From positions 288,001-352,000 of the forward strand of contig JAHPZA010000009.1 in the NCBI GenBank assembly GCA_019058445.1: a stretch of 64,000 nucleotides of DNA, in the 5' to 3' direction. Each line of letters opens with the position of its first letter. Position 1 is the stretch's first letter. The DNA is from Promethearchaeota archaeon. GTDB taxonomy: Archaea; Asgardarchaeota; Lokiarchaeia; Sigyniarchaeales; SOKP01. The notes beneath the pieces are model-generated. The model saw only the letters and a list, made by a program, of their open reading frames with translations. It was not told the DNA's origin and made no database searches. Positions 7,829 to 38,254 of this stretch are shown here, in pieces. Both the position numbers and the translations under genes were made by a program.

Positions 7829-10294
7829 TTAGTTAAGTATCATTAACTTTCTCTTATGAGGTACAGATACTTTTTCAACAAAATCAAAAGAAATATCCAC
7901 TTCTCTCGCAACATCAATTAAGGCTTTTGGAGATTGGTGAAAAAAGCAAACTTCTTTCGGTTCAAGACTTTTAATCATTTCTCGTAATTGTGTGCGATCG
8001 CCATGAAGTTTAATCTTTATTTGGGGAGCAAAGGAATTTATTAGTAATGCCCGAAATGGCATTTTCCAGGTCTCAGAAAAAGTAATTTCTTTTACATCTG
8101 ATTTATCTTCTGGATCAGGAGGGGTTATTAACTCCAATCCCGGTTCTTCATGGATAGCCCCTGATAGAAATACCATATTATGGGGATTCCTCCCGATTAT
8201 ATTTATGATATTTCTTATGATTCCATATGAGAGATCGGGAGGATGAGAAATGATGATATTATTTTTTTTGCGTAAAAAATCCAGATCATTAATGTCGAAC
8301 CATCTAAACTTAATAGAATTGAATGGATTTGCTTTATCGCGGATTAAGCGAGATATCGGACCATAAATATATTCATATCTATGATTAATGACTTGGATAT
8401 TCTTTCGAACCATTTGATCAACATAAATATTAGGTCTTTTCTTGTAATCTTTTTTCAATTGGAGCTTTCTAAAATATCTCCAAAAAATAAGCATGAATGT
8501 TATTGCTAAGCTCGATGGATCCGCACCTATTAAGCTATTATCTTCATATTCTGCCTTCTGCTCCAAAAACAATATGAGACTATGAAACTGATCCGAGATA
8601 TTGCCGAAATCTTCTTGAGCGCTTGAGGCATCTATTAACAAAAAATCGATTGGACGGGAAATCTGTTCTAAAAATCTTCTGGTACCTGCAAATGGTGTAA
8701 TGTCATAATAAGTATAATCTCCAGTAAATAAAAAGCGAAAATTCTGCACTTTAGCTAACATCATTAGCGCTCCCGGCATGTGTCCAGCATGGTAAAATGA
8801 TAAATAACATCCTTTATCCTTGAATTCAATCTTATCCCCGTTTTCCACATAAATTACATTTCGAACAATATTTACATAGTCTTGATCTTCGATCTCTTCT
8901 TGACTCTCTTGCTTTAAATATTCAGAATCTCTTAAGATATATAAATCCAAGGTAATTCTTGAGCATAAAATAGGTACTTCTGGATTTAATTTAATAAACT
9001 CTTTTACTCCAGAGATATGATCAAAATGACTATGCGAAATAAAGATTGCATCTATTTTTGGTTTATAGGATAGCTCTTTATTATTACCAGTATTCGAACC
9101 ATTTTTTTCTTCAATTTTTATAATTTTTTCATCCTTGCTCATTTCAGTTTCATCATGTTCATCAGCTTTTTCTTCCAAAGTAAGTTCAAGATCTTGAATG
9201 CTCTGAGATTCGGGTGGCTTTTCCTCTTCATTTAAAAACTCAGTTATTATTTTCCTAGTATCCTTACTATCTGCTATTATTTGATCGAAATTGGTTTTAT
9301 AGGTTTCAATATATTCAAAATATTCTTCTGTTATCCCACAGTCCAATAATATGTTTAACTTACCTAGTCCTAAAATTAGAGAATTATGATTTGGTTTCAG
9401 AGCAATCGGATAAAGACTCACTCTAATTTTTTCATCGGTGCCAATTCCATTCTTAAGGGATATCTCTTTAAAATAGTTTTCGTCAAATTTTCTTTCAATC
9501 TTGTCGACAGCAACTGAAACTTCACTTTTCCCGACTGGTACACCTGTAATATAGAAGTACCATCCATATAAATTGACCAATTTATCTAAATTATCATACA
9601 TTTTATCTCCGATTAGAGATTTTACAACAATTACCTTCTCCTGCATGTAATAAATAATTTTAGCTATGGAATTTTTTTCTTTATGGGGAATATCCTCATT
9701 TTTAAGAAAGAAATCATCTAAAACTTCTTTAATTGGTTTTTGTGGAATTTTTTTTGATTTTATCTTTTTAAAATACTTAAAATATTCTTTTGTCTTATAC
9801 AACGGTCGCATATTTTCTTTTTGTTTAAGAATAATATTCGTATTATCGAATTGATAATTCTCTACTTTGATAGTGTTCTCTTCTTTCCTCAACTTTTTTT
9901 CAGATTTTTTGGATTTTCTGGATTTTATTGGTTTTTTTTCTTTGAAACGTTTATCAGATTCAGACACAAAAAAAAACCATCCATATGCTTTAACTAGTTT
10001 ATCCCGATTCCAAATTATATCTCTCCCGGTTTTCGTGATGGCAACAATTACACGATCCTTTAGAGAATATAATATTTTTTGTATGGAGTTCTTTACTTTT
10101 GAGTTTATTATTTTATTTTCATTGGAAAAAAAGTGAATTAATACTTCTTTAATATCTTTTTGAGGAATTTTTTGCTCTTCCATTAATTTCAATTTTTGAT
10201 TATAAGACTTAATTTTAAAAGAGGATCCTAATTTCGTTAATTCTTCTATTGAAATTGAGCGATCATTAATTTTAAATTCCTCTTTTATCATCAA
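7829..10294 (-). CDS. Metallo-beta-lactamase / beta-CASP nuclease with a duplicated N-terminal domain
   Basis: LDCG, SHSHFDH, HAGHMPGA, FTGD, LHGD and FFH motifs. Confidence 0.85.
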   Translation of the reverse strand: MMIKEEFKINDRSISIEELTKLGSSFKIKSYNQKLKLMEEQKIPQKDIKEVLIHFFSNENKIINSKVKNSIQKILYSLKDRVIVAITKTGRDIIWNRDKLVKAYGWFFFVSESDKRFKEKKPIKSRKSKKSEKKLRKEENTIKVENYQFDNTNIILKQKENMRPLYKTKEYFKYFKKIKSKKIPQKPIKEVLDDFFLKNEDIPHKEKNSIAKIIYYMQEKVIVVKSLIGDKMYDNLDKLVNLYGWYFYITGVPVGKSEVSVAVDKIERKFDENYFKEISLKNGIGTDEKIRVSLYPIALKPNHNSLILGLGKLNILLDCGITEEYFEYIETYKTNFDQIIADSKDTRKIITEFLNEEEKPPESQSIQDLELTLEEKADEHDETEMSKDEKIIKIEEKNGSNTGNNKELSYKPKIDAIFISHSHFDHISGVKEFIKLNPEVPILCSRITLDLYILRDSEYLKQESQEEIEDQDYVNIVRNVIYVENGDKIEFKDKGCYLSFYHAGHMPGALMMLAKVQNFRFLFTGDYTYYDITPFAGTRRFLEQISRPIDFLLIDASSAQEDFGNISDQFHSLILFLEQKAEYEDNSLIGADPSSLAITFMLIFWRYFRKLQLKKDYKKRPNIYVDQMVRKNIQVINHRYEYIYGPISRLIRDKANPFNSIKFRWFDINDLDFLRKKNNIIISHPPDLSYGIIRNIINIIGRNPHNMVFLSGAIHEEPGLELITPPDPEDKSDVKEITFSETWKMPFRALLINSFAPQIKIKLHGDRTQLREMIKSLEPKEVCFFHQSPKALIDVAREVDISFDFVEKVSVPHKRKLMILN

Positions 10295-23080: not shown

Positions 23081-23359
23081 TTTTTTTCCAAATTTTAAGC
23101 TCTAAATATAATTTAGCACTTTTTTTAATAGATTGTTATTAAATCCGAGTATTATAAATGATACTCTGATCCTTGAGTGAATTTTTTGTAGTTGGAATAA
23201 TCTATGAATTTAAAAATTCTCTTTTTTATATTATATACCTGAAATTTATAAAATAGAATCTTTTTTAGTAATCAAATTATTTGGTAAAATATATCGCTTT
23301 AAAAAGATTTAAATTTATACAAAATAAATTTATTTTTATTATTTGGAGTTATTTTATTG

Positions 23360-23932
23360 ATGATGATGAAAAAGAAATCTTTTAATGAACTTTTAAGTAT
23401 TGACGATGATGATAAAAAAATCATCGAGATGATTGAAAAAGATCCTGACATTACCCATAGCGACATAGCAAAAGAAATTGAGAAGTCACAACCAGCTGTA
23501 GGAGCTCGAATTATTAAGCTTGAACGTAAACACCTCCTAACGAAACAAGTAGGATTCAATATAAAGAAAGTTGATATTAAAGTCTCAATTGCCTATATCT
23601 CTACAAAAGATGTCGATAAAATAGTAGAAAAAATTGAAGATTGTCCTTTCATTAACCACGCGTTCAAGATAAGCGGAGAATATAATTTACTTTGTTTTAT
23701 AACTGCTTCGGATCTCCAAACTATTGAAAGGTTGATTGATTTATGCTTCCGTAGAGATAAGGATGTTATAAATGTAAAAACGAGTATCCTTATTGAGTCA
23801 ATACACGATTTTGTGGTACCTATTGATTTTCAAATAGAGAATTTTGATGGAAGATATTGTTCTCCGCAATGCTCTTTAGCAGATGAAGTGAAATATAAAT
23901 TCAAAGTAGAGGATCTGGAAAAAGAAGAGTAA
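23360..23932 (+). CDS. Lrp/AsnC-family regulator
   Basis: HTH THSDIAKEIEKSQPAVGARI, CPF...FKISG, Cys tail CSPQC. Confidence 0.9.
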   Translation: MMMKKKSFNELLSIDDDDKKIIEMIEKDPDITHSDIAKEIEKSQPAVGARIIKLERKHLLTKQVGFNIKKVDIKVSIAYISTKDVDKIVEKIEDCPFINHAFKISGEYNLLCFITASDLQTIERLIDLCFRRDKDVINVKTSILIESIHDFVVPIDFQIENFDGRYCSPQCSLADEVKYKFKVEDLEKEE

Positions 23933-23956: not shown

Positions 23957-24496
23957 TTAAATTAAACCCTGCTTCTTAGCGAGCTTATACTTACATTTTT
24001 CACCACATCCTACTTCATCATTAGGGTCGTGATCTTCCGAATCGAAATCAATTGGCAAAATAAGATCTTTAGCAATTTCGGTAACAACCTCCATAGAAGC
24101 CATACTCACGTCTGAATTATTCCGAAAATGATAATTCACAACTGTATCTAATTTTTCTAATTTACTGCTTGCCAAGAGAATACATATATTATGTGCTCCG
24201 CTTAACCGAAAGGCATTAAGCATGAATGGGCAACATTTTGCCATATCCATGATCTCCTCTGGATTCTTCGAATTAACTTCCACGGTAGCTAAGAAAAGCT
24301 CAACCTTTTTAAAATTGATTCCTGGCTGAAATTGTAATATTCCAGACTTTTCCAGTTTTTTAATTCGCATCCCTACAGTAGGCTGACTTCTATCGATTTT
24401 TTCAGCAATTTCAGTATGCGTAAGATTTGGGTCTTCTTGGACTAATGAAATTATTTTTCTATCCACATCATCCAGCTTTAGCTTTTCACTTATCAT
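23957..24496 (-). CDS. Lrp/AsnC-family regulator
   Basis: THTEIAEKIDRSQPTVGMRI, CCPF..AFRLSG, tail CGEKC. Confidence 0.9.
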   Translation of the reverse strand: MISEKLKLDDVDRKIISLVQEDPNLTHTEIAEKIDRSQPTVGMRIKKLEKSGILQFQPGINFKKVELFLATVEVNSKNPEEIMDMAKCCPFMLNAFRLSGAHNICILLASSKLEKLDTVVNYHFRNNSDVSMASMEVVTEIAKDLILPIDFDSEDHDPNDEVGCGEKCKYKLAKKQGLI

Positions 24497-24791
24497 GTGT
24501 CTCTCAAGTTAAATTTTAGTTTAGACTTAATTTAAATTTAGTTTTTAACATATATAATTTGTTAGTTTTTTAATGCTTCTAAATTTAATCCTTAAAGATG
24601 TAAATTAGTTATAAAATCGATAAAGTGTAAATATAAGAATCAAATAAGGGGACTGATAAAAAAGTCTATAATCAATAATATCCCTTCTAAATAGTGTAAT
24701 ATAGAAGATATTTAAAAACCTATGTAATTTGAAAGATTAAATTCTGTTAAAATTTTAGATAAAATTCATAAAAAAGTAAAAGTGGAATAAA

Positions 24792-25010
24792 TTAATCTTT
24801 CCAGCAATGATGATCCAATTTACATTCACATCTACTAAAATTAAAATCAAATGGTATAACAAAATCGGTCATAATGTCCGTTATTAGATCTATTGTAACT
24901 TTCAGTACATCAGGATTGCTTCTTAAATGAATATTGACAATCTTATCAATATCTTCGACATTAAATCCTGCCATCATAATACTCATATCGGTATTTCCGC
25001 TCAATCTAAA
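24792..25010 (-). pseudogene. Orphan 3' half of an lrp gene (displaced original end of 31637..32143)
   Basis: FRLSG...CECKLDHHCWKD nearly identical to the C-terminal half of the 31637 gene; HTH absent. Confidence 0.9.
24796..25010. repeat. 215-bp direct repeat, left copy (att-like)
   Basis: Ungapped manual alignment to 31644..31858, about 29 mismatches, mostly at third codon positions. Confidence 0.92.
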
Positions 25011-25263
25011 TGCTACTATCGGATTAAATACCAAAATATTTTTGAAATTCCTAAATTTATCAAATCGTTGAAAGTAAAAAAAATGGAATAAATTTGTAAT
25101 GAGACTTATAGATTTCTAATACTTATTTTAGAGGAATTAGCACATTTTTGAATAATTTGGAATATTAATATTAAGTGAATAACTCGTTCACTAAGAAAGA
25201 AATCCCTAAGAAATCAAAGTAAAAATTAAATTAAAAAAAAAGAAGTTAAAATAGAAGTAGGGC

Positions 25264-25421
25264 TTAAATGTAGCCATTCTTTCGAAGGATATTCACCCAT
25301 CCGCACGTACAGGCTTCACAGTCGGGTTCCCATTCCTATAACAGTTCGAGCAGGTTATGACGGAATCAAAACTCGCTTGCTCTAACAAATTCATCAATAG
25401 TTCCTCCTTCTCTTCACTCAT
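25264..25421 (-). pseudogene. Small zinc-finger protein, frameshifted
   Basis: MSEEKEELL...VITCSNCYRN / frameshift / EPDCEACTCGWVNILRKNGYI*. Confidence 0.65.
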
Positions 25422-25424
25422 AGT

Positions 25425-25709
25425 TTAGTGCTCACCTGTAGATCTGTTTTTGAGAATAATATAGAATTGCATGAGCTCGTTAAATGTGAGACATTTGATA
25501 TTACAGCCTGTCTTACATAGCTCGTACACATAGTTCGCTTCTAAGAAGTTAATTACATAGGTGTACCATTGTTCTAAGGGGATGTGTTCTGGAAGTGCTT
25601 TCCTTACGAGTGGCAAAAAGGCGTTCATAGTGAGGTTTTTGCTATATAATTGTTCAAATTCTTTTCGGTGGTATTTCATTTCGGGGGGCGGGGTGTGTAG
25701 CGAATACAT
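25425..25709 (-). CDS. Hypothetical mobile-element protein
   Basis: 94-aa ORF tightly packed with its neighbours (TAA-ATG junction at 25712-25707). Confidence 0.6.
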   Translation of the reverse strand: MYSLHTPPPEMKYHRKEFEQLYSKNLTMNAFLPLVRKALPEHIPLEQWYTYVINFLEANYVYELCKTGCNIKCLTFNELMQFYIILKNRSTGEH

Positions 25710-25860
25710 TTAGCGAAATCGCTCTCCGTATCGGTCATTAAACTTTTCAAAATCCATATCATCTTCTAACATATCTTTTAAGATGTCATAGGCATCCAGA
25801 ATCGGGGAATTAGGAGAAATAAATTCAAAATCCTTGTAGATAAATTCTAATTTTTTTCAT
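25710..25860 (-). pseudogene. Small acidic protein frameshifted in an A7 run after the ATG
   Basis: Removing one A gives MKKLEFIYKDFEFISPNSPILDAYDILKDMLEDDMDFEKFNDRYGERFR*. Confidence 0.55.
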
Positions 25861-25972
25861 CCTAATGTAAAAGTGGCAGGATCGAATTCTTCAGAAAAGA
25901 ACTCCTGGATGAAAAATATAATGTTCATAGTGCTACTATATATTTTACGCACGGAACGGAATAATTCATTAA

Positions 25973-26433
25973 TGGAAATTCATTACTGAAGGTATTATCA
26001 CCGCCCACAATATTTTAAGTTCTACCGAAGAAATTGAAATTAATGGCGGATATAACAAATTTACAGGAATAGTGAATGAAGGAATTGCCTCTGAAATCAT
26101 AAAAGTGACTCCCCGGGAGGGAGTATACTATGATAACACGTTAGGGTTCCAACCTGAGACGATTGATGGTTCTTATTACTATATGGACGGTGATTTTGAC
26201 GGGAAGATGGAAACAATATTGGTAGCAGATGTGGAAGGCAACATAATCGCTGTCGGGTTTGATTACGATTATAATTCATATTTCGTACCCCATAAACGAG
26301 ATCTAGTTCACATTCACGTGCGTGAATCACAATTTTCTGAAGATGAGGGATACTTTAACTCAAGCATAAATTACTGGACTGTTATGACGAGGACGATGAT
26401 TATATCTCTCTTGAAAAGACATTCTCGGACAGC
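25973..26433 (+). pseudogene. Frameshifted upstream part of the giant protein gene, lacking a native start
   Basis: Frame opens after TAA at 25970; contains DGDFDG and DYDYNS Ca-binding-like motifs; the frame of the 26434 ORF is already open from ~26359. Confidence 0.7.
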
Positions 26434-29400
26434 TTGTTTGACTTATGGAAAATTCAATTCTCTGGGGGTTCGAGTGTACTATTAGATGAAGTATCCCAGC
26501 TTACTTTTGATAAATTTGCGGAATCTCTCACTCCAGAAAAAGTACGAGCAGATTTTGCGTGGCAATTAATTTCCACGGGTGTTGCGCTTGGCGTAGGAGC
26601 ATTAGCGGGGAAGTTAGGATTTGCGCTGACGTATGCGGGTATGAATATTTGGAAAGGGGTAGTAGACCAAATGGAGCAGGACAATCTGATCGCTTCGAAG
26701 ACATATCACGACGAGAATTACCGCGGTAAGAAATCATTATCGGAGACGCCTTGGTATGATGATTTCTTTGGAGATTCCATTACCACCGCGTTTATTGGTA
26801 ATCCATTCGGCGTATATGCGCCCGTAGTATTTGAGACCGAGAAGTATAAATATGAGGGTCAAGTGGTATTAGCACCTATGGGCGGGTCTAAGACAAAAAG
26901 TATTGAGGAGTCATTTTTATCCAGCGGACTTCAGGCAAAATACGTATACACTCCATTAGATTTTTCCCTTCAAACCCGGAATTATCTAGGATATTCTGAT
27001 CTTACTGATGTACGATGTCAAGGATTAATTGATGATGATTTAATGGTTGATTATTGGGTTGAATCTGCGCTAAGCATAGACTTCGGCATGTCAGGCAGCC
27101 CATATGAAATAGCCTACGAGGGGCTTACCCATTACCAAGAAAATCTGGACGTATTCTCCCGCCTCTGGAACGCCCCGCATTCCATTACATACCTTGAAAA
27201 TAACGCTGCCCTATCTACCAAGCAAAACCAAGATGATGATCTGAATAAAATTATCCCCTATATGGATGATTACTATCCAACCCTTTTATTAAGTGATGTG
27301 AACAACATTAAAACTCTTCCCGAATTCTACGAGGATTATCCTATCATTGTCTCAGAAGAGGTCTATGACGATATTTGCGATGAGTTGTTTGATAGGGAGT
27401 TAGATAGCTTCTATAAAGTATGGGAAAAAGGAGAAGGTCAAGATCTACGCATCATCCCCGGAGGTTCCACGCATACATTAAAAGCCGATATTGATCACAT
27501 TAACGTATATGTCTGTACTTACAAAACAGGGGGCGATAAAGCGAGCTTTGGTTACGATAAATTTGACACCTTGGAAAGCGATGATTATGCATTTGATGAG
27601 AATTCAGGGCAGATTATCTTTGATTCATCTATCATAGAGAAGTTTAAAGGTAAAATTGACGAGAAAGAAGATGTCAATTCAAACTATCAATATTGTATTG
27701 TTTTAGAGATTTTTGTAGAAAAGTTCCGCTCTATCAATGACACCAAAGACCTTACTACTGAGGAGATGAAACAGATTGCGTCCATGCAAGCCATTCAGGT
27801 AGCAGTATTGGAGTATTATTATCAATTCCAATTAGCTGTACAAAGCCAATCCAAGATCAATGAGATCGCCTATACTGTTGCTCTCACAGCAGCCACTACC
27901 GCGATTTTATGCCCCCAACAGATTCTATCTGAGACGTTAGAAGAATTATTCTTAGACCCGCTTATTGAAGCCTCTGTATCTGGTATTACCAGAGAGATTG
28001 GTAAAGCTATGGGTATAGAGGATACCACATACGCCGAAATCGTGTTTTCCACCATGGCAGAAACCGGGCGTGAAACTGCTATGGGGTTAGGGACCACGTT
28101 TAATGAGCAATCCCAATGGCGCCAAAACCGATACATTCACAAAATATTTAAAAAGATCACTGCCTACCAGCAGCAACAGGCAGCTGCCCATCAAAATAAT
28201 ATTATAGAGGAAGTGAAACAATCATCCGAACAAGATACTTCTGATACAGCGCAGACGTCTTTAATTATATTTGGCAGAGCAATCCAACAAGCTGCCATCT
28301 ATGCCAAGCTAAGGAATATGGATGTGAAACAGCGCAAACAGATTGCAAAACTTCCCGCAAAACAGATTCTCGCCATTTTAACTGGAAAAGAAGCGGTAGA
28401 TTTCGATTTAGATTCTAAGCTACCTGCTCCCAATCCGTTCTATATGGGTGACGATGATGATGAGGGAACAATCGTGTATAATGAAAGGCTAAATGCGCTT
28501 ATTCGACTCAATATGTTGAGCGGTAATCGGTTAAATTCTATCTCCGATGAGAAAAAGCAGAGACAATTGCCAAAAGGATTATGGGAAAAAACTGTTAGAA
28601 TGGTTCAAGCACAAAGTCTTAATATTCTTCAAGATAGTAAGGGTATTTGGACTTTGGATCCATATATGATTGCCAGAGATATCCTACAAGAGCAAGGATA
28701 TGATATAAGTAATACTCTTTTTGCTGGAAATATGGCACCAAGATTTATCGCTTCAGCAGATTCTATTGAGAAATATATAACATTAATTAGTTTATACATT
28801 AATGACTTCCAACATTGTTTAAGAAGTAACAATTTGATTGAAGCTCTTGACATATTAGATGTAAAATCAGACGTCTCAAGAAAGATTATTCAAGATATTT
28901 TGGATAGTGGTAATAAAGTAAAAATTCAATTAGCTAAGCATATCCTTAACAAGATCTTAGACCTTAAAATTACAAAGAAGTTACCAGCTGATGCTATTAT
29001 AGGAAATACCGAATCATTAAAAATTTGGCAAAAAGGATTTTACAAAAAATTAAAATCAGGCAGTTTTCGAGGGGTTGTGTATAAAGTTTACTTCAACCTT
29101 CCAGGAACGGTTTATGATTATAAAAATAGCCATTATATTGGTAATCAATATATTGGTGCAACTGGTAGAATGAATCCTAAAATCCGTTTTTATGAAGAAA
29201 TTTGGCAAGCATTAGAAGCTACTCAAGATACAAGGCAAAAGAAAATTACTCAATGGTTATTGCATCCCACTCCACAAAATTTGCCGATTTTGACGACTAA
29301 AAATAAATATTTTAAAGCAATAATTTTTGCAATGCGTTTTTCAGGGATAACAGTCAAGGAAATCCTTGATTATAAGAAGCAGATAGATGCTCATCCATCA

Positions 29401-30492
29401 AAAAAGTGGGATATAGCAATGAAAATAGCTGATAGGTTAGAAACGAGTAATATTGTTAAGTTCACACCTATAGAAGTAACTGAGTCTCTCGACTATGCAT
29501 TTAAGAGAGAAAGACAATTAGTTTTAGCTTATCAGAAAAGAAAAGGATCAATAGATACTCTATTAAACTCAATAGTTCCTGCTGGCGTATTTGCAGCATC
29601 AATAGATCTTCCTTGGTTTGATATTGCAATAATGATTGCAATGGGGTACCCTATAAAACAAATAGCAGAACATTTATCAAACGAATATCCAGAATACCAT
29701 GGAATCCATAGGAATACTATTACCCGTGGAATAGAAGAATTATTTGGTGATTTTTATCAAGCTCAAGAGGAATTGTTGGGAGGGTCAATTGAATACCTTT
29801 TAGATTTTAGTGAAGAACTATTAGGGCGCGAATCTGGTGCTGTACGGCGCTATTTGCAGATACAACATGATATTAGAATCCATAGAACTGTGTATTATAA
29901 AGCTAAGAAAGACATAACTTGGTTTTATCAGTACTTGTGGGGTTCAGTAGGTCTGAAATTTGATCAAGACAAAGTAAAGTCTCTTATTGATCGTCTCCCT
30001 CCCGCTAAGATAGATCCTCATACTGTAAACAGAATTGTCAACGCATACTCCCTTAGATTATACGGTCAACCAAGAATAACGTGGTATAAGTGGGCAATTG
30101 AAAATAAAGATGATGTTTCGATTGCTAATGAACTCAATATTAATAGAAAGACTGTTAGCAAGATATGGGACACTTTGTTAGAAGATATATTACAAGATAC
30201 ACAGATACCAAATTTGATTCTAGCCACGAATAGCAAAGAAGCAATAAAATCATACCTTAGATCTCAAATAGCGATCGCTTTATTACAAAGGGGCGTCTCA
30301 ATGGATTATATTTGGACTTATGTTTTTGGAGAATCTGTTACTCCCTATCAAGCTCAAAAAAGAGATGAATTTTTTCAAAAATTAGCGTTGGGGTCCTATT
30401 TACACTCTGAGGATGTTTTACTTGGATTTTATGATACATTCTGGCTTGAATTTCATGAGATTCTTTATAATGCCCCCTCAGGCATAATTTAA
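26434..30492 (+). CDS. C-terminal remnant of a giant polymorphic-toxin-like protein with a GIY-YIG nuclease and HTH domains
   Basis: Acidic N-part, Gly/Ala hydrophobic helices, Q-rich linker, GVVYKV...YIGATGR..PKIRF...RERQ...LLNS, two HTH-like segments. Confidence 0.7.
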   Translation: MFDLWKIQFSGGSSVLLDEVSQLTFDKFAESLTPEKVRADFAWQLISTGVALGVGALAGKLGFALTYAGMNIWKGVVDQMEQDNLIASKTYHDENYRGKKSLSETPWYDDFFGDSITTAFIGNPFGVYAPVVFETEKYKYEGQVVLAPMGGSKTKSIEESFLSSGLQAKYVYTPLDFSLQTRNYLGYSDLTDVRCQGLIDDDLMVDYWVESALSIDFGMSGSPYEIAYEGLTHYQENLDVFSRLWNAPHSITYLENNAALSTKQNQDDDLNKIIPYMDDYYPTLLLSDVNNIKTLPEFYEDYPIIVSEEVYDDICDELFDRELDSFYKVWEKGEGQDLRIIPGGSTHTLKADIDHINVYVCTYKTGGDKASFGYDKFDTLESDDYAFDENSGQIIFDSSIIEKFKGKIDEKEDVNSNYQYCIVLEIFVEKFRSINDTKDLTTEEMKQIASMQAIQVAVLEYYYQFQLAVQSQSKINEIAYTVALTAATTAILCPQQILSETLEELFLDPLIEASVSGITREIGKAMGIEDTTYAEIVFSTMAETGRETAMGLGTTFNEQSQWRQNRYIHKIFKKITAYQQQQAAAHQNNIIEEVKQSSEQDTSDTAQTSLIIFGRAIQQAAIYAKLRNMDVKQRKQIAKLPAKQILAILTGKEAVDFDLDSKLPAPNPFYMGDDDDEGTIVYNERLNALIRLNMLSGNRLNSISDEKKQRQLPKGLWEKTVRMVQAQSLNILQDSKGIWTLDPYMIARDILQEQGYDISNTLFAGNMAPRFIASADSIEKYITLISLYINDFQHCLRSNNLIEALDILDVKSDVSRKIIQDILDSGNKVKIQLAKHILNKILDLKITKKLPADAIIGNTESLKIWQKGFYKKLKSGSFRGVVYKVYFNLPGTVYDYKNSHYIGNQYIGATGRMNPKIRFYEEIWQALEATQDTRQKKITQWLLHPTPQNLPILTTKNKYFKAIIFAMRFSGITVKEILDYKKQIDAHPSKKWDIAMKIADRLETSNIVKFTPIEVTESLDYAFKRERQLVLAYQKRKGSIDTLLNSIVPAGVFAASIDLPWFDIAIMIAMGYPIKQIAEHLSNEYPEYHGIHRNTITRGIEELFGDFYQAQEELLGGSIEYLLDFSEELLGRESGAVRRYLQIQHDIRIHRTVYYKAKKDITWFYQYLWGSVGLKFDQDKVKSLIDRLPPAKIDPHTVNRIVNAYSLRLYGQPRITWYKWAIENKDDVSIANELNINRKTVSKIWDTLLEDILQDTQIPNLILATNSKEAIKSYLRSQIAIALLQRGVSMDYIWTYVFGESVTPYQAQKRDEFFQKLALGSYLHSEDVLLGFYDTFWLEFHEILYNAPSGII

Positions 30493-30562
30493 AAAGTATA
30501 GTTTTTTATTAAAATATAGGAAAAGGATTTTGTTTTCTTGTAAAACAAAAAAGTCTTGTTAC

Positions 30563-31504
30563 ATGATAATGAAAAAAAGAACATGGTTTTTCACCACAAG
30601 AAGTCTAGAAGACGAGGGAGAGGGAAAATTTGAAGAAATTTTTGTCAATATATGTGGTCTCGATTTTTGGAAATATCGACAAGAACCTAGTCTGCTTTCG
30701 AAATTCATATTAGAAAGCCACTTAGATGAAATAATCAATTATATTGAGTATCATAAACACCAACAATTAAAAAGATACCAAACCTCTAACGATAAGTTAA
30801 AAATTAGGGAAGGAATAGATTTATTATATGCTCTTGCGTACCAAATTCTTGCAATATTAATTCTTGAGACTGGCTCCATTTTACCTGATAAGGTAAAAAA
30901 CGAGGTTTTAAGAGCAACAATATGGGATTTTGATAAACGATGGGGCTTCTCTTCAGCGTATATAGAACCGAGAAAAAATTATCTAAAATATCTGCGGAAT
31001 GCTATATTAAACTACAATTCTGGTAAGAAGGTTTTATTTGTGGATAGTCCTGAGTTGAAAATTCTTAATAAAGGTAAAGAAGCTACGATAATTGAAGGTT
31101 TAGAAGGATTGTTTGATAACATAGTAAGAGCGCAAGAAGTCACCCGGCTCGATTTAAGCAATTGCAATTTGAAATCTATCCCTGAAGAAGTATTCTTTTT
31201 TACTAATCTTAGAGAATTATATTTAAGTGGAAATAAATTAAGGGAGATTCCTAGTGATATTAAGGTCTTGCAAAATCTTGAAGTTTTAGATTTGTCTCAT
31301 AACGATTTTGAATCCTTCCCAGAGGTAGTTGTGGAGCTATCGTCTCTTGAAGTATTAGATTTAATTAAGAATAGAATTAGTGAAATACCAGAATCTATTT
31401 TATGCCTCGATAATTTATATTATTTACACTTAGGAGGCAATCCAGTTGATTTTGTTAAGTTACATTCGCTACTTCCGGATATCTATATTGGCTATCCATA
31501 TTAG
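30563..31504 (+). CDS. Helical N-terminal domain plus LRR; candidate immunity protein
   Basis: LxxLxLxxNxLxxIP repeats in the C-terminal third; directly downstream of the nuclease-tipped gene. Confidence 0.8.
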   Translation: MIMKKRTWFFTTRSLEDEGEGKFEEIFVNICGLDFWKYRQEPSLLSKFILESHLDEIINYIEYHKHQQLKRYQTSNDKLKIREGIDLLYALAYQILAILILETGSILPDKVKNEVLRATIWDFDKRWGFSSAYIEPRKNYLKYLRNAILNYNSGKKVLFVDSPELKILNKGKEATIIEGLEGLFDNIVRAQEVTRLDLSNCNLKSIPEEVFFFTNLRELYLSGNKLREIPSDIKVLQNLEVLDLSHNDFESFPEVVVELSSLEVLDLIKNRISEIPESILCLDNLYYLHLGGNPVDFVKLHSLLPDIYIGYPY

Positions 31505-31636
31505 CCCACACAGATTAATTAAATTATCTCTACATTTAGGATACTCCATATTTAAAGAACGAATAGTTGAATCAATTATAACTTGAAATATTTAATAAAA
31601 AGGATTTACCAGAAAATTTATACTTTGTTTTTCAGA

Positions 31637-32143
31637 CTACTCTTCTTTCCAGCAATGTTTATCTAATTTGCATTCGCATTTACTAAAATTAAAGTCAAAT
31701 GGTATAACAAAATCGGTCATAATATCTGTAATTAGATTTATCGTAACTTTAAGTACATCAGGATCGCTTCTTAAGTGAATATTGACAATCCTTTCGATGT
31801 CTTCAATCGTAAAACCTGCCATCATAATACTCATATTTATATTACCGCTCAGTCTAAAACAATTCAAGAGAAATGGACATTTTTTAACAATGTCATATAT
31901 ATTATCAGGGTTGTTTGTCTGGAGATCAACTCTTGCAAAATACATATCGGCTGCTTTCAGATTTATTCCTGCTTGAAACTGTAGGACGCCTTGCTCTTCA
32001 AGTCTTCGAATTCTCATTCCTACAGTAGGTTGGCTCCTATTAACTTTTTCGGCGATTTGGGTATGTGTTAGATTAGGTTGATCTTGGACTAAAGCAATAA
32101 TTTTTTTATCAATTTCATCCATTTTTAATACTTCACTCATCAT
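31637..32143 (-). CDS. Lrp/AsnC-family regulator (integration target, intact)
   Basis: THTQIAEKVNRSQPTVGMRI, CPF..CFRLSG, tail CECKLDKHC. Confidence 0.9.
   Translation of the reverse strand: MMSEVLKMDEIDKKIIALVQDQPNLTHTQIAEKVNRSQPTVGMRIRRLEEQGVLQFQAGINLKAADMYFARVDLQTNNPDNIYDIVKKCPFLLNCFRLSGNINMSIMMAGFTIEDIERIVNIHLRSDPDVLKVTINLITDIMTDFVIPFDFNFSKCECKLDKHCWKEE
31644..31858. repeat. 215-bp direct repeat, right copy (att-like)
   Basis: Exact blocks shared with the left copy: CCTGCCATCATAATACTCATAT (31815-31836 = 24967-24988) and a 29-bp block (31695-31723 = 24847-24875). Confidence 0.92.
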
Positions 32144-32346
32144 TTTTTATTTTCCCCTTGTTAAATTTTTATTATCGGTCTATCGTTTATTGACGGTTAA
32201 TCGATATAACGATACCATCATATTTAAATATTACGGTAGGTCCTAGATCTTTATCTTATTGAAATTAATAAATCATTAGTAAAATCTTTAAAAGCTTTCA
32301 AATTCATCTTAAATTCAAACATTCAGTCCAAAAATTTTGAAATACC

Positions 32347-32682
32347 ATGAGTGAGTTAACAGAAAAGATTGCAGACTTTCTAAAAATACTTTCAGACCAA
32401 ACGCGACTTGAGATCTTGGAACTATTAAGAAATGGTGAAAAAACCTCAAAAGAAATACAAGAGCGATTAGGTAAAAGCCAATCAACAATATCTCAGCATC
32501 TGAAAAGATTGAACGATGAGGATCTCATCATCAATGAAGAAAAGGACAATATAAACTACTATCGGATTAAGTATCAATATATTTTTAAAATCCTTAAATT
32601 TATCCAATCATTCGTAATAACCCTCCAAAAAGAGAAAATTAGAAAGCTAAGTGAATTAAATATTGAAGATACTCTATCATAA
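32347..32682 (+). CDS. ArsR/SmtB-family regulator
   Basis: LSDQTRLEILELL...SQSTISQHLKRL. Confidence 0.9.
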   Translation: MSELTEKIADFLKILSDQTRLEILELLRNGEKTSKEIQERLGKSQSTISQHLKRLNDEDLIINEEKDNINYYRIKYQYIFKILKFIQSFVITLQKEKIRKLSELNIEDTLS

Positions 32683-33659: not shown

Positions 33660-34328
33660 ATGATCCCAATTAAATATCCACTCTTTGAAATACCTAATTT
33701 GAAACAAGGAACTTTTCAGGAAAGACCTAATCGATTCATCGCTGAGATCGAATACAAAGGAAAAATAGAAACTGCACATGTCCATGACCCAGGGAGATTA
33801 AAAGAATTACTTATAAAAGGGGCAAAAATTCTCTTTACTCACTCCAAAGGCAAGTTAAAATATTACATAAAGGCTGTAAAATGCGAGGATGAGTGGGTAC
33901 TAATTGACACTGCTCAACATTCGAAAATTGCTATGAAAGTATTTTCTTATTTGCCAGAATTCACGCATGTTAAAGAATTTAAAAAGGAAGTTAAGCTTGG
34001 AAATAGTAGAATTGACTTTATGCTTGATGGGATTCCTTTAGAAGTTAAGGGAGTTACTCTTGTAAAAGATGGATTAGCATTATTTCCGGATGCTCCAACA
34101 GAGCGAGGTACTAGGCATGTAAATGAGATTATTCAACATCATGGAATTATTTTATTTTTAATATTTCGAAAGGCAGAAAAATTTGCTCCTAATTGGGAGA
34201 CTGATCCAAAATTTTCTGAAAAATTAAGCGAAGCAAGGAATAATGGAATTAAAATATATGTAGTTCAAATTTCTTTTGATGGAAAAATGTTATATTATCA
34301 CGGAAGAATTAAACTAGCAGATTTCTGA
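33660..34328 (+). CDS. sfsA: SfsA-family nuclease
   Basis: RPNRF, HVHDPGRLKELL, SRIDF, LEVKGVTL, FPDAPTERG.RH. Confidence 0.93.
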   Translation: MIPIKYPLFEIPNLKQGTFQERPNRFIAEIEYKGKIETAHVHDPGRLKELLIKGAKILFTHSKGKLKYYIKAVKCEDEWVLIDTAQHSKIAMKVFSYLPEFTHVKEFKKEVKLGNSRIDFMLDGIPLEVKGVTLVKDGLALFPDAPTERGTRHVNEIIQHHGIILFLIFRKAEKFAPNWETDPKFSEKLSEARNNGIKIYVVQISFDGKMLYYHGRIKLADF

Positions 34329-34462
34329 ATTAAATCTAAAATTATAAGTCATTTAAACATTAAATCAAGCTAATTTAAACGGTAAACATTTAAATTTTAG
34401 AACTCTTACCATATTAATATCATTCAAATGAACAAAATGGTATAAATTAGGCGTCACGAAGT

Positions 34463-35146
34463 TTGAGTTCTATAATTTTAATTGAAGATGAAATAATAGT
34501 CTATGATCTGGTAAAAGAATATTTGCAAAAGAAACCGCTATTTAATCTTGAAGAAATCGTCAGTTTTTTAAATTATAGATTAAAATCAAACATGAATTTT
34601 AATAGAAACAAGATCACATTAGTTATTAAAGCTCTTATAAAGAAGAAATTAATCTTACCTGGAACTAAATTGGCTAGAGATGACATTTTAGAAGTTGCCA
34701 AACGGGTAGAAATATATGATTATATTACTGCAATGCCAGGTGCACATTTATCTGAAATCAAGGAATATCATGAAATAGGGAGCAATCATGTTATATGGCA
34801 TTTAAAATGGTTAGAAAAATTCGAATTTATTAGGTCTGCAAGATTTAAAAATCAAAAGGCGTATTTCAACTCAAAATTTGACAAGAGATATGATGAAATT
34901 TTTTTTTATTTAAGAAATGCTAAAGTAAAAAAAATAATAAAACTGCTACGTAAGGAATCATCATCAATGAACCTTACAAATATATCAGATAACCTAAATA
35001 TCCACTATACCACAGTAAAAAAGTATATGAATATCTTACAGAAGTTTAATTTATTAATGGAGGTTGATGAAGAACACAAACAGGAATATTTGCTAAATCC
35101 TAAAATGTTCGCAATAATACAAAATGTTATTGATAATTTGAAATAG
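34463..35146 (+). CDS. Multi-wHTH transcriptional regulator
   Basis: R.EIYDYI..MPG.H...WHLKWLEKF, second HTH ISDNLNIHYTTVKKY. Confidence 0.8.
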   Translation: MSSIILIEDEIIVYDLVKEYLQKKPLFNLEEIVSFLNYRLKSNMNFNRNKITLVIKALIKKKLILPGTKLARDDILEVAKRVEIYDYITAMPGAHLSEIKEYHEIGSNHVIWHLKWLEKFEFIRSARFKNQKAYFNSKFDKRYDEIFFYLRNAKVKKIIKLLRKESSSMNLTNISDNLNIHYTTVKKYMNILQKFNLLMEVDEEHKQEYLLNPKMFAIIQNVIDNLK

Positions 35147-35268
35147 TAAGGATTTATTTACCTTTAATTTTTGAAAATGATTAAAACTGAGTTCAATATT
35201 CTTCCAATGGGATTTAAAAAATATAATTTAGTCTATCTAATTGAATTAAAAATCTTTGATAAAATGTC

Positions 35269-38214
35269 ATGAGTTCTCGCAAAAAACTTAAAATTCTGAT
35301 TTTAATGGAATTGTTTATTATATTAGCAATAATTTTTAGTTCAATCAATAATGAGAACTATATAAATGATATTTCTGATCAAAATTCTGAGGATAAGCTA
35401 CAATACGATAATCAATTCACAAAAATTAAGAATCAGGGCTATTGGAATTTGACTGGAAGTCCTATTTTTATTAATGGAAGTGCTACAGGCATGGGTGCTC
35501 AAAATTGGACTTGGGCTGAAAGTCATGACTGGTGCACTAAGATTAATGGAGCATATATTATTGAAAACGTCACTATCGATGGTCGAGATGTGGATGGGCG
35601 TTTAATAGACATCGTTGATTCAAATGATCCCTTTATTATTAGAAATTGCACATTAATTGATTCAGATTATGGAAATTACTTCGCAGCTTTAAGATTACAT
35701 AATACAAATAATAGTTTAATAATTAACAATAATTTTTCAAATTCTAATTACAATGGGATATTACTTGAAAATAGTAAAAATAATACAATATCGAATAATT
35801 TATTAAATGACAACCAGTATGGAATACATTTAGCTGATTATAGCAACAACAATACTATTTACAACAATACAGCAAACGGAAACGGATGGTGTGGAATTCT
35901 ACTAGGTGGAGGATTACAGGGACAATCATTTAATAATATTATTAAAAACAACACTTTTAATTTTAATACAGTTTATGGAATATCTTTGACTAGTGGTTCA
36001 ATAAATAATACTATTTCAAATAATACTGTGAGCTATAACACAGGAAAGGGGATTATGCTAGGTTCCCAGTGTAATAATAATACTATCACAGATAACTACA
36101 TCTGCGAAAATGGAGATAGTAATTATGATTATGGAATTCATTTATATGATACTTGTAATAAGAATAAAATAATCAATAACACTATTGTAAATAATTATGA
36201 TTCGGGAATTTATTTGGAAGATCAATGTAATTATAATATTATTTATGATAATATTATAAGTGATAACGGAATCAATGGAATAGAATTAGACGATCGATGT
36301 AATTACAATAATATAACTGATAATACAATTTCCAATAATAGTCAAAATGGAATTTATCTATATCAAATGTGTGAATACAATGGGATAGAAAATAATACAA
36401 TAAATGATAATAAAAATCACGGAATTTATTTGCATCAATCATGTGGTAATACTGGTTATAATGTGATTTCAAACAATACTATTAATGATAATAGTCAAGA
36501 TGGAATACATTTGCTGAATTTCTGTAATAATAACAATATCACTGGAAATTTAGTAAGGGATAATGGAGAGAATGGAATTTATTTATCTACAATATGTAAT
36601 AACAACAATATAACGGGTAATACGGTAAGTTTTAACAATCAACAGGGCATCTTTATTGATAATTACTGTTATAATAATTATATTACAGGAAACACGGTAA
36701 GTCTTAACAATCAACATGGTATCAATTTAGATAATGGGTGTTATGATAATTATATCACAGGAAATACAGTAGAAAATAATTTGAATGGAATAAATATAGT
36801 TGATTGTGATGATACAAATGTATCGAAAAATATAGTTTATTCTAATAATCAACATGGAATTGCTTTGTCAGGATGTAATAATTGTAACCTTACAGGAAAT
36901 AATGTTTATCAGAACGATGAAGATGGATTTATCTTAGAAAATTCTTATGATCTTTATCTGTATAATAATAGTGTAACTCTCAATCTTGACCATGGGATTT
37001 ATCTAATTAACACGAATAATTCTGATATTGTTGAATGTAAAGCTAATAGCAATTTTAAAGATGGTATTAGATTATTTGGAAGTCATAATATTACGATCAT
37101 TAATAGTTCAGCTAATTCCAATGCGATTTATGGGATTGCATTACTAGAGAGTCATTTTAATAAAATGGAAAATAATACTGAAACAATTAGCTTGAATGGT
37201 GTTAGTGGCATATATTTAGAGGGTAGTCATAATAATACTATTACTAGAAATAATATCAATAATAATCCTATTGGTATCCAATTAGTAAATTCATTTAATA
37301 ACACAATATCTCCTAACACCTTTATTGGTAATGGAATTAACATATTATATGGTGTTATCGTAATAGATGATGGATCATCAAGCGATGGAGGAGGGGGAGA
37401 TGGAAGTGTTAAAGATGAATTTCCAATAATTATCATCATCATTATTGTAATTGGGAGTGTAGGTTCTGTAGCTTCCTTAGCAGTAAGGTCATCTATGAAG
37501 AAAGGTAAAGTAAGTTATTCAGGTAAAAAAGGTCTTTCAAAAGAACAGAAAGCTAAAGCTAAAAAGAAAGGGATGTTAAATTTTGAAAATGAAACAGGCG
37601 AATTAGAAACTATTAAATCAGCTAAAGAAATTCAAAAGAAAACCAAGTCAATTACAGATGAATTTCAGAAGAAAATGGATCAATTAGAACCAAAATCAAA
37701 ATCTCAAGAATTAACTGAGGCAGAAAAAGCTGAACTAGCAAAAACGGAAGCAGAAATGGAAGTTGATAAGCAGAAATTTATATGTGTTGTGCATAGGGGA
37801 CCAATTCATGGTTCAAATATTTATCTTTGTAAGCATTGTGAGACCTTTTATTGTGAAAGATGTGCTAAGGTCCTTAAAATGAAAGGAGAGAAATGCTGGA
37901 ATTGTGAGAATGAAATTGATATTGAAATCACAGAAAGAGATCGTAATACCCTGTTAGAGAAAAAAGCTGTTGATTTAATTGAAGATATAATTAATGAGAA
38001 ACAATTTGTTAGAGATTTTGTTGAATCTAATAAAGATATTGAAGAAATTCCTCAAATAAAAGACTATCTTTTTTCATTAATAACTCTTGAAGAATTAGTT
38101 AAAATTGATTTAATAGAACTATCACCAGAGGATAAAAAGCGCTTTATTAAAGAGTTAATTCTTCTAGATTATAATGAACGAGAAAACTATTTGGATGAAA
38201 TACTTAAGGAGTAA
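35269..38214 (+). CDS. Large NosD/beta-helix surface protein with TM helix and a C-terminal RING-like Zn finger
   Basis: Many GI.L...C.NN.I..N repeats, G/D linker, poly-Ile TM, Lys-rich stretch, CVVH-x11-CKHC-x4-CERC-x10-CWNC. Confidence 0.85.
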   Translation: MSSRKKLKILILMELFIILAIIFSSINNENYINDISDQNSEDKLQYDNQFTKIKNQGYWNLTGSPIFINGSATGMGAQNWTWAESHDWCTKINGAYIIENVTIDGRDVDGRLIDIVDSNDPFIIRNCTLIDSDYGNYFAALRLHNTNNSLIINNNFSNSNYNGILLENSKNNTISNNLLNDNQYGIHLADYSNNNTIYNNTANGNGWCGILLGGGLQGQSFNNIIKNNTFNFNTVYGISLTSGSINNTISNNTVSYNTGKGIMLGSQCNNNTITDNYICENGDSNYDYGIHLYDTCNKNKIINNTIVNNYDSGIYLEDQCNYNIIYDNIISDNGINGIELDDRCNYNNITDNTISNNSQNGIYLYQMCEYNGIENNTINDNKNHGIYLHQSCGNTGYNVISNNTINDNSQDGIHLLNFCNNNNITGNLVRDNGENGIYLSTICNNNNITGNTVSFNNQQGIFIDNYCYNNYITGNTVSLNNQHGINLDNGCYDNYITGNTVENNLNGINIVDCDDTNVSKNIVYSNNQHGIALSGCNNCNLTGNNVYQNDEDGFILENSYDLYLYNNSVTLNLDHGIYLINTNNSDIVECKANSNFKDGIRLFGSHNITIINSSANSNAIYGIALLESHFNKMENNTETISLNGVSGIYLEGSHNNTITRNNINNNPIGIQLVNSFNNTISPNTFIGNGINILYGVIVIDDGSSSDGGGGDGSVKDEFPIIIIIIIVIGSVGSVASLAVRSSMKKGKVSYSGKKGLSKEQKAKAKKKGMLNFENETGELETIKSAKEIQKKTKSITDEFQKKMDQLEPKSKSQELTEAEKAELAKTEAEMEVDKQKFICVVHRGPIHGSNIYLCKHCETFYCERCAKVLKMKGEKCWNCENEIDIEITERDRNTLLEKKAVDLIEDIINEKQFVRDFVESNKDIEEIPQIKDYLFSLITLEELVKIDLIELSPEDKKRFIKELILLDYNERENYLDEILKE

Positions 38215-38254
38215 TTCTTTTTTAAGCGCTTAATTTTTATATTTTTATTTGAAA

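Follow-up and report, generated by a model that had tools for sequence, protein, structure and literature searches.

Organisation of the lrpC locus

The stretch of DNA analysed here (the window, 64,000 nucleotides) covers positions 288001-352000 of contig 9 (C9) of a Promethearchaeota genome, G000, which comprises 4.6 Mb in 10 contigs at 31% GC, with a completeness of 92.6% and a contamination of 4.3%. In this window lrpC, a gene for a regulator of the Lrp family, stands beside a divergent arsR-type helix-turn-helix (HTH) gene, and a 6.6-kb island without an integrase separates the two from a broken copy of the same pair. The locus is a recombination scar around this integrase-less, decaying island; it is not a case of a new element family that targets lrp genes, as a preliminary description of the DNA had proposed. 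The features on which this rests are the following.

24656..24791, native downstream flank of lrpC, still joined to the remnant (collinear with G003 and L063, related sequences described below)
24792..25013, minus strand, lrpC', a remnant made of the last 73 codons of lrpC with its own stop, orthodox allele (87% identical to 31644-31858)
25013..25069, plus strand, arsR', a fragment of arsR, codons about 71-89 of 111, fused to lrpC' (86% identical to 32556-32612)
25070..31636, the island
31637..32143, minus strand, intact lrpC, 168 amino acids, its copy of the repeat at 31640-31861 (Pfam HTH_AsnC-type and weak AsnC_trans_reg)
31862..32555, interval absent from the remnant, about 695 bp, with the lrpC 5' part, the divergent promoter spacer and the arsR 5' part (delimited by two collinear repeat blocks)
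32347..32682, plus strand, intact arsR-type HTH gene, divergent from lrpC, its copy of the repeat at 32556-32612 (Pfam HTH_5)

The coordinates of the repeat were obtained by a repeat search and local alignment in the window, followed by a search of the whole genome. The last 71-73 codons of lrpC, at 31644-31858, recur at 24796-25010 as an ungapped direct repeat of 215 nt with 87% identity (E 5e-69 in the whole-genome search), close to the identity of about 86% given in the preliminary description. The left copy has kept its own stop codon (TAA, 24792-24794) at the end of an open frame of 80 codons, and its homology to lrpC reaches 25013 when it is aligned with orthologs, three bases beyond the end of the repeat. 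The codon at this inner edge of the remnant is GCA (Ala), as in all relatives, and TGT in the intact lrpC; the copies differ at the inner edge (25010-25013 / 31858-31861) and share no identical core there. A stand-alone functional RAM-domain protein encoded by the 80-codon frame was considered and rejected, because the frame begins only at lrpC residue 95, whereas the Pfam domain spans 72-138, so that its first strand and helix are missing.

The left copy had been thought simply to end in the middle of the gene. Instead, it is fused to 57 nt of the 3' part of arsR: positions 25013-25069 match 32556-32612 with 86% identity (E 6.5e-13), and this is the sole such match in the genome. The lrpC 3' end on the minus strand is followed by the arsR 3' part on the plus strand, in the order and orientation of 31644..32612 with 31862..32555 taken out. 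Since the two blocks keep order, orientation and strand and abut directly, one deletion explains the remnant, and judged from its sequence it is what is left of the lrpC/arsR pair once a central segment of about 695 bp is removed. The two sides overlap by 1 nt at the deletion joint, and the endpoints carry CAATCTAAA and CAATATAAA, identical at 8/9 positions and 3 nt from the joint, a resemblance that may be due to chance in AT-rich DNA. No homology beyond either repeat end rose above shuffled controls.

The flanks of the two copies were then compared with those of relatives. Positions 24656-25013, which hold the lrpC 3' end and its downstream flank, are collinear with G003 9281-9644 (81.5%) and with L063 (80%), whereas positions 31505-31636, downstream of the intact lrpC, have no homology to the native flank. 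It is therefore the remnant that occupies the native position.

Native locus and empty sites in relatives

Two further regulator genes lie to the left of the remnant.

23357..23932, plus strand, lrpA, Lrp/AsnC regulator, 191 amino acids, native neighbour (Pfam HTH_AsnC-type and AsnC_trans_reg)
23957..24496, minus strand, lrpB, Lrp-type regulator, 179 amino acids (Pfam HTH_24/HTH_AsnC)

Orthologues of lrpA, 84-89% identical, occupy the same position in the related genomes G001-G003, and those of lrpB, 91-93% identical, lie next to lrpC in G003 and G002. lrpB and lrpC are tandem paralogues with about 50% amino-acid identity. On contig 259 of G002 the order is Ahp, a hypothetical gene, lrpA (+), lrpB (-), lrpC (-), arsR (+), an Arf-like GTPase gene, ferredoxin and SfsA, with 128 bp between lrpB and lrpC and an arsR orthologue of 83% identity at the same position as in the window. 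Apart from 24497..31636, G002 and the window are collinear. According to the preliminary description, three lrp genes are adjacent once the insert is taken away; exactly this arrangement, an empty site, was seen in G002:C259, G001:C70 and the metagenome contig L063, where lrpB and lrpC adjoin each other. Relative to the same-genus genomes with an empty site, the insertion amounts to about 7.1 kb.

The lrpB-lrpC spacer of G003 holds a 379-amino-acid histidine-kinase-like gene, without a repeat, and that of G012 a ferredoxin gene and about 2 kb. Because these contents differ from each other and from the empty spacers of G002 and L063, we regard the spacer as a variable spot.

Several other changes were noticed around the locus. 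In G001:C70 (L026 8139-8345), the DNA beside lrpC has lost arsR together with codons 1-128 of the Arf-like GTPase gene, of which only residues 129-181 are left; this is a further deletion at the same locus, in a relative. The lrpC-arsR spacer of G003 has about 650 extra bp, and two contigs end there (the end of G003:C167 and G003:C278 25283-26084), which suggests a repeat at that spot. Window positions 34325-38252 (about 3.9 kb), with an HTH protein gene at 34463..35146 and further open reading frames (ORFs), are absent from G002 and G003, whose synteny resumes at 38253; they form a second lineage-specific insertion, 2 kb from the first. Finally, lrpC and its orthologues share a conserved Cys/His-rich tail, C-x-C-x4-5-H-C-W (window 31640-31700), after the RAM domain and outside the Pfam domain, which may bind metal.

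Divergence of the two copies

To describe the divergence, changes were assigned to branches with G003, L063 and G002; all of the substitution counts are small, and the lengths behind them are 57-285 nt. Between the two lrpC 3' ends there are 15 synonymous and 11 non-synonymous codon differences in the raw count, corresponding to a non-synonymous divergence (dN) of 0.069, a synonymous divergence (dS) of 0.709 and a dN/dS of 0.10. Over the same segment, dS between species is 0.53 for G003 and L063 and 0.8-2.1 for G000 against G002, G003 and L063, so the dS between the copies is close to the between-species range. Such a dS together with the low dN/dS reveals purifying selection on both copies, which were working genes for most of their divergence.

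Of the changes on the remnant's own branch, 8 are synonymous and 3 non-synonymous, a departure from neutrality (binomial p 0.001) from which it follows that the remnant still worked as a gene until recently; for the intact lrpC 3' part the corresponding numbers are 7 and 9. The arsR' fragment has 2 synonymous and 4 non-synonymous changes and the intact arsR 2 and 0, and the relaxed pattern of arsR' fits a fragment that was crippled earlier, when the island removed its 3' end. Both copies share derived states relative to G003, L063 and G002, namely at five lrpC sites and, in arsR, CGG and AAATTTATC.

At the protein level, lrpC was compared with 15 close orthologs out of a search of 5.8 billion proteins. 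The N-part (residues 1-94) is 87-97% identical to them and the intact C-part (residues 95-168) 72-80%, while the C-part of the remnant is 74-92% identical to the same orthologs and 90-92% to P0037 and P0045. Against P0037, the closest ortholog, the N-part is 97% and the intact C-part 77% identical: the intact C-part differs from it at 16 residues, the remnant at 6 and the N-part at 3 of 94. The observation that a functional gene carries a diverged effector-binding end, its orthodox end having been displaced, therefore stands. The ratio of C-part to N-part divergence per site is 1.77 in the family, 1.83 when the N-part is combined with the remnant and 2.84 when it is combined with the intact C-part. 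In a tree of the C-parts, the remnant has an end branch of 0.019 in a clade with P0037, P0045, P0046 and P0048 (support 90/86), and the intact copy stands on an unplaced branch of 0.25. A maximum chi-square search for a breakpoint within the repeat was not significant (p 0.16). Nucleotide distances to G003, G002 and L063 did not tell a native from a foreign copy, the differences lying within sampling error.

The island is a patchwork of broken pieces

The island between the copies comprises the following parts.

25070..25850, left arm, with small minus-strand ORFs at 25293..25421 and 25425..25709 (no homologue found)
25851..25979, patch of 129 nt, 94% identical to the 3' end and downstream sequence of a DUF2299 gene in a second island on contig 6 (sequence match)
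25982..30492, plus strand, large-protein gene, its 5' end cut off at about 25980 and with a frameshift near 26375-26385 (a single ORF in the contig-6 paralogue and in G006; the N-terminal 550 or so amino acids are 35-45% conserved)
29068..29577, plus strand, the part of the large-protein gene for a predicted GIY-YIG nuclease domain; HTH domains come next, as far as 30492 (Pfam-passing homologues and fold match)
30530..31504, plus strand, leucine-rich repeat (LRR) protein gene, 324 amino acids, the last gene of the island (Pfam LRR_8/LRR_4)
31505..31636, right arm, now the downstream flank of the intact lrpC (no homology to the native flank)

The left arm gave no Pfam or PHROG match and has no second copy in the genome; its 94-amino-acid ORF (25425..25709) has a GC content at third codon positions of 0.47, versus about 0.27 in the flanking native genes. 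The 129-nt patch is much younger than the split between the copies, since it is only 6% diverged. The large-protein gene is split over two listed ORFs, 26072..26485 and 26434..30492. Overall, the island is a patchwork of broken pieces, compatible with illegitimate recombination.

No recombinase was found when all island ORFs were searched against Pfam and PHROG. The whole 4.6-Mb genome has only two tyrosine recombinase genes (PF00589), one at C9:114.6 kb, at least 170 kb from the island, and one on a different contig, at C6:27 kb; a serine recombinase gene (PF00239) was not found anywhere in it. No terminal inverted repeats at 25070/31643 pair the ends of the island, tRNA and Rfam scans of the window region and the contig-6 island gave nothing, and a scan of IMG/VR for the cassette returned nothing related.

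The candidate att core of the preliminary description was also followed up. A 22-bp block of exact identity is indeed present (24965-24986 / 31813-31834), but it is set back by 24-27 nt from the end of the repeat, within it, and does not coincide with the junction. Its sequence, CCTGCCATCATAATACTCATAT, is a conserved coding block for MSIMMAG that is identical in the uninterrupted lrpC of G002, and the identity is thus explained by coding conservation. The proposed integrase-type att duplication is not supported either: there is no recombinase in or near the island, and what lies beyond the repeat is a piece of arsR and not element DNA.

The large protein and its nuclease tip

The first 550-620 or so amino acids of the large protein are 35-52% identical to those of its contig-6 paralogue, several copies in G006 and eight metagenome proteins, while the C-terminal halves of the family are unrelated and cannot be aligned. 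Each member has a small gene or an LRR gene 3' of it, and in the contig-6 paralogue, too, it is an LRR gene that follows the large-protein gene. By the comparison of its members, the family appears polymorphic-toxin-like, with a conserved N-terminal region, unrelated C-terminal tips and a putative nuclease tip.

Three homologues of the C-terminal 503 amino acids (the tip), P0012, P0017 and P0018, pass the Pfam GIY-YIG cut-off at the aligned position, and the contig-6 paralogue has a Pfam GIY-YIG match of 23.3 bits. An AlphaFold model of the tip (predicted local distance difference test, pLDDT, 74) was compared with 48,161 chains in a wide VIA-align search; the best of them was the catalytic domain of I-TevI (1ln0_A; Z 7.1, root-mean-square deviation 2.7 Å, 87/92 aligned), followed by T4 EndoII and, downstream, by HTH folds. 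The Z of 7.1 is only middling, but the three lines of evidence agree, and the tip is predicted to have an I-TevI-like GIY-YIG fold. The tip encoded in the window itself gave no Pfam match, phmmer against PDB sequences found nothing, and Foldseek with the model of the whole 503-amino-acid tip found no match in the PDB.

The cassette family at other loci

A family that targets Lrp genes was not recovered at the other loci. In G002 and G003, two AMP-binding genes stand next to each other in tandem; in G000 they are separated by a 12.3-kb island that contains the contig-6 paralogue, and this island has no lrp gene, no target duplication and no flanking repeat. Three loci of homologues in other assemblies have housekeeping neighbours and no Lrp-family Pfam match, and tblastn with the lrp and arsR proteins of the window gave nothing there. 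No lrp gene was found beside the cassette at the contig-6 copy, at the G006 copies (whose contigs are short and do not cover the upstream flanks) and at L102-L105.

The contig-6 island (L049 5966-18260; G000:C6 about 863.97-876.26 kb) contains genes for a paralogous large protein of 1,450 amino acids, LRR, WD40 and DUF2299 proteins and a 773-amino-acid metallophosphoesterase. The flanking AMP-binding paralogues (L049 4031-5770 and 18342-19789) are both interrupted at about the same domain position, one by a single in-frame TAA and the other by a frameshift; they may be pseudogenes, or sequencing errors or recoding may be involved. In the same island, a sequence of 110-190 nt at L049 16817-17011 recurs with 71-90% identity on many contigs of G002, G003, G005, G006 and G009; ARAGORN and Rfam gave no match, and it is either a dispersed repeat or a small multi-copy gene. 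The N-terminal region of the large protein has weak matches (E about 1e-6) in two open frames, one of 14,473 amino acids (G009:C21 about 39.6 kb) and the other of 12,725 (G036:C5 about 32.6 kb), and the large-protein family may, on these matches, be related to parts of giant proteins.

Origin of the scar

We consider it somewhat more probable than any other course that the lrpC/arsR pair was duplicated around the island and that one copy then lost its middle, a reading that we give slightly better than even chances. The segment duplicated in direct orientation, at least 969 bp long and corresponding to 31644-32612, would have taken in the whole of lrpC and of the divergent promoter spacer and four fifths of arsR, so that two copies of the pair bracketed the 6.6-kb cargo island, the left one at the native position. 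The left copy would have had a working lrpC for most of its history, until a single deletion of about 695 bp joined lrpC codon 95 to arsR codon ~71 and removed both 5' halves and the shared promoter. The pair may have been imported with the island from a sister lineage, with the right join anchored by homology and the left join made illegitimately inside the resident arsR, either by homology-facilitated illegitimate recombination or by a Campbell-type single crossover of a circle; or a tandem duplication may have arisen in place, with the island inserted later at its joint. Any model needs the order arsR (3' part)-island-lrpC (stop) at some stage, as a duplication joint or as a circle with the island and the pair. 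We infer the order of these events and the recombination mechanism from the arrangement and divergence of the blocks.

Some of the data sit uneasily with a duplication followed by a deletion. The extra amino-acid divergence of the intact gene is confined to its duplicated part (16 against 3 differences from P0037, p 0.013 relative to the family ratio of 1.77), and the triple-base change from GCA to TGT in the intact copy falls exactly at the inner boundary of the repeat. Both points are expected with an extra junction in the intact copy, that is, with a true replacement of the 3' end, and a duplication must invoke domain-specific acceleration and coincidence for them; if acceleration had covered the whole RAM domain, the lack of unique changes in residues 66-94 would have a p of about 0.14. 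An approximately unbiased (AU) test did not reject the two 3' ends as sisters (p 0.28), and import and duplication in situ are therefore not told apart. Nor was an undeleted double pair found in 9 same-genus genomes or in a metagenome scan.

A replacement of the 3' end, the main rival, which we consider possible but rather doubtful, would have begun with a break in lrpC at codon 94/95 that was repaired from a donor with the island between the arsR 3' part and lrpC, either a circular element with a captured lrpC-arsR segment or a relative with the double pair. At the right end, repair by homology would have copied from the donor the 3' end of its lrpC, the island itself and a 57-nt piece of arsR, and the left end would have been joined without homology; the GIY-YIG nuclease of the cassette could have been the cutter, as in homing, and its I-TevI-like fold with HTH domains suits this role. 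The supposed incoming pieces do look relaxed (7:9 synonymous to non-synonymous for the intact lrpC 3' part, 2:4 for arsR') and the supposed native ones constrained (8:3 for the remnant, 2:0 for arsR), the divergent tract of the intact gene begins at the repeat boundary with the triple-base codon change, and the drop in identity to P0037 from 97% in the N-part to 77% in the C-part agrees with it. However, the donor must already have had the arsR-island-lrpC order, which makes the replacement no simpler; the nuclease gene is 5'-truncated and frameshifted here and its product is fused to an N-terminal region of about 850 amino acids, in contrast to homing enzymes of the free-standing kind; elsewhere the cassette family does not adjoin lrp; the AU test does not separate the 3' ends, and the breakpoint test is not significant; and every count is small. 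A bolder version regards the cassette with its GIY-YIG/HTH tip as a mobile gene of the homing type in Lokiarchaeia; the cassette would have cut lrpC near codon 95, and repair from a donor copy would have brought it in along with a diverged 3' end of lrpC. This version is improbable in our estimation; if it were true, the ligand-binding part of a regulator would have been swapped without an integrase.

Integration by an integrase, since lost, through an attP site that contained the 3' end of lrpC, its core being the 22-bp block, would account for direct repeats that flank an insertion absent from relatives, and for the restoration of the gene by the island-side copy. We hold this to be very unlikely: besides the missing recombinase, the repeats are 87% and not 100% identical, no more than 1 nt is common to the two sides where they are actually joined, the 22-bp block stands off the repeat end and is the same in the uninterrupted gene of G002, the arsR fragment lies past the repeat, the cassette family occurs elsewhere without an lrp target or a flanking repeat, and nothing related turned up in IMG/VR. 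Equally small is the chance that two related populations were stitched into a false partial duplication during assembly. The assembly may be metagenome-derived, its contamination is 4.3% at 92.6% completeness in 10 contigs, and the copies differ at the between-species level; but the joint of lrpC codon 95 with arsR codon ~71 offers no shared k-mer for an assembler to cross, the left and right flanks are each collinear with relatives over many kb, and copies at 13% divergence are not expected to be merged or confused.

Comparison with known systems

Homology-facilitated illegitimate recombination that leaves displaced remnants is a published model for toxin/immunity loci, with type VI secretion system effector-immunity arrays and the displacement of Rhs C-termini as examples (PMC5361080 and references therein). 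The present locus resembles these in that one side would be anchored by homology and the other illegitimate, the resident copy is displaced as a remnant and there is no integrase; the cargo, a large protein with a variable tip and a predicted nuclease end plus a downstream partner gene, is similar too. It differs in that the anchor is an unrelated neighbouring regulator pair, lrpC/arsR, and not the conserved part of a toxin, that the host is an archaeon and that the mechanism is a reconstruction.

Elements that integrate into a gene and rebuild its 3' end include those targeting tRNA genes in archaea and bacteria and casposons at the 3' end of aEF-2. The insertion described here is likewise bracketed by a repeat of a gene 3' end, with the gene intact on one side and the displaced 3' end on the other. 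Unlike such elements, it has neither an integrase nor Cas1, its repeat (218 nt, 87%) has no identical core at the joint, the displaced copy runs into the neighbouring gene and the cassette family is not recurrent at the target.

Free-standing GIY-YIG homing endonucleases of phages (I-TevI, Seg and Mob proteins) cause co-conversion of flanking markers; homing does not normally leave a partial duplication behind. The C-terminal 500 amino acids with a predicted GIY-YIG fold and HTH domains, the empty allele in relatives and the diverged allele in the adjoining part of the gene recall I-TevI homing, whereas here the putative nuclease is no small stand-alone product but forms the end of a protein with at least 1,350 amino acids (1,350-1,450) and a conserved N-terminal region of about 550 amino acids, and the gene is broken.

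Aloposons carry tandem genes for proteins of 3,000-6,000 amino acids and a ParA-like gene set, and integrate at tRNA genes (PMC8813620). The island shares with them an Asgard-lineage host, a large-protein cargo and its absence from relatives; it was rejected as an aloposon, there being no tandem genes of 3,000-6,000 amino acids, no ParA-like set and no tRNA target.

Significance

The feature is ordinary in kind, and the locus alone opens no new question. Its value lies in a documented scar and in the odd C-terminal part of the surviving regulator. It also serves as a warning that a partial gene repeat flanking an island is insufficient to call an att site. As a dated relic, it records the recent loss of a second lrpC that had been functional, and it shows how unusually diverged the ligand-binding part of the surviving regulator is. 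For Asgard archaea, the locus is a well-delimited case in which a Promethearchaeota chromosome, with no site-specific recombinase at work, gained cargo by recombination at a variable spot in a row of tandem regulator genes.

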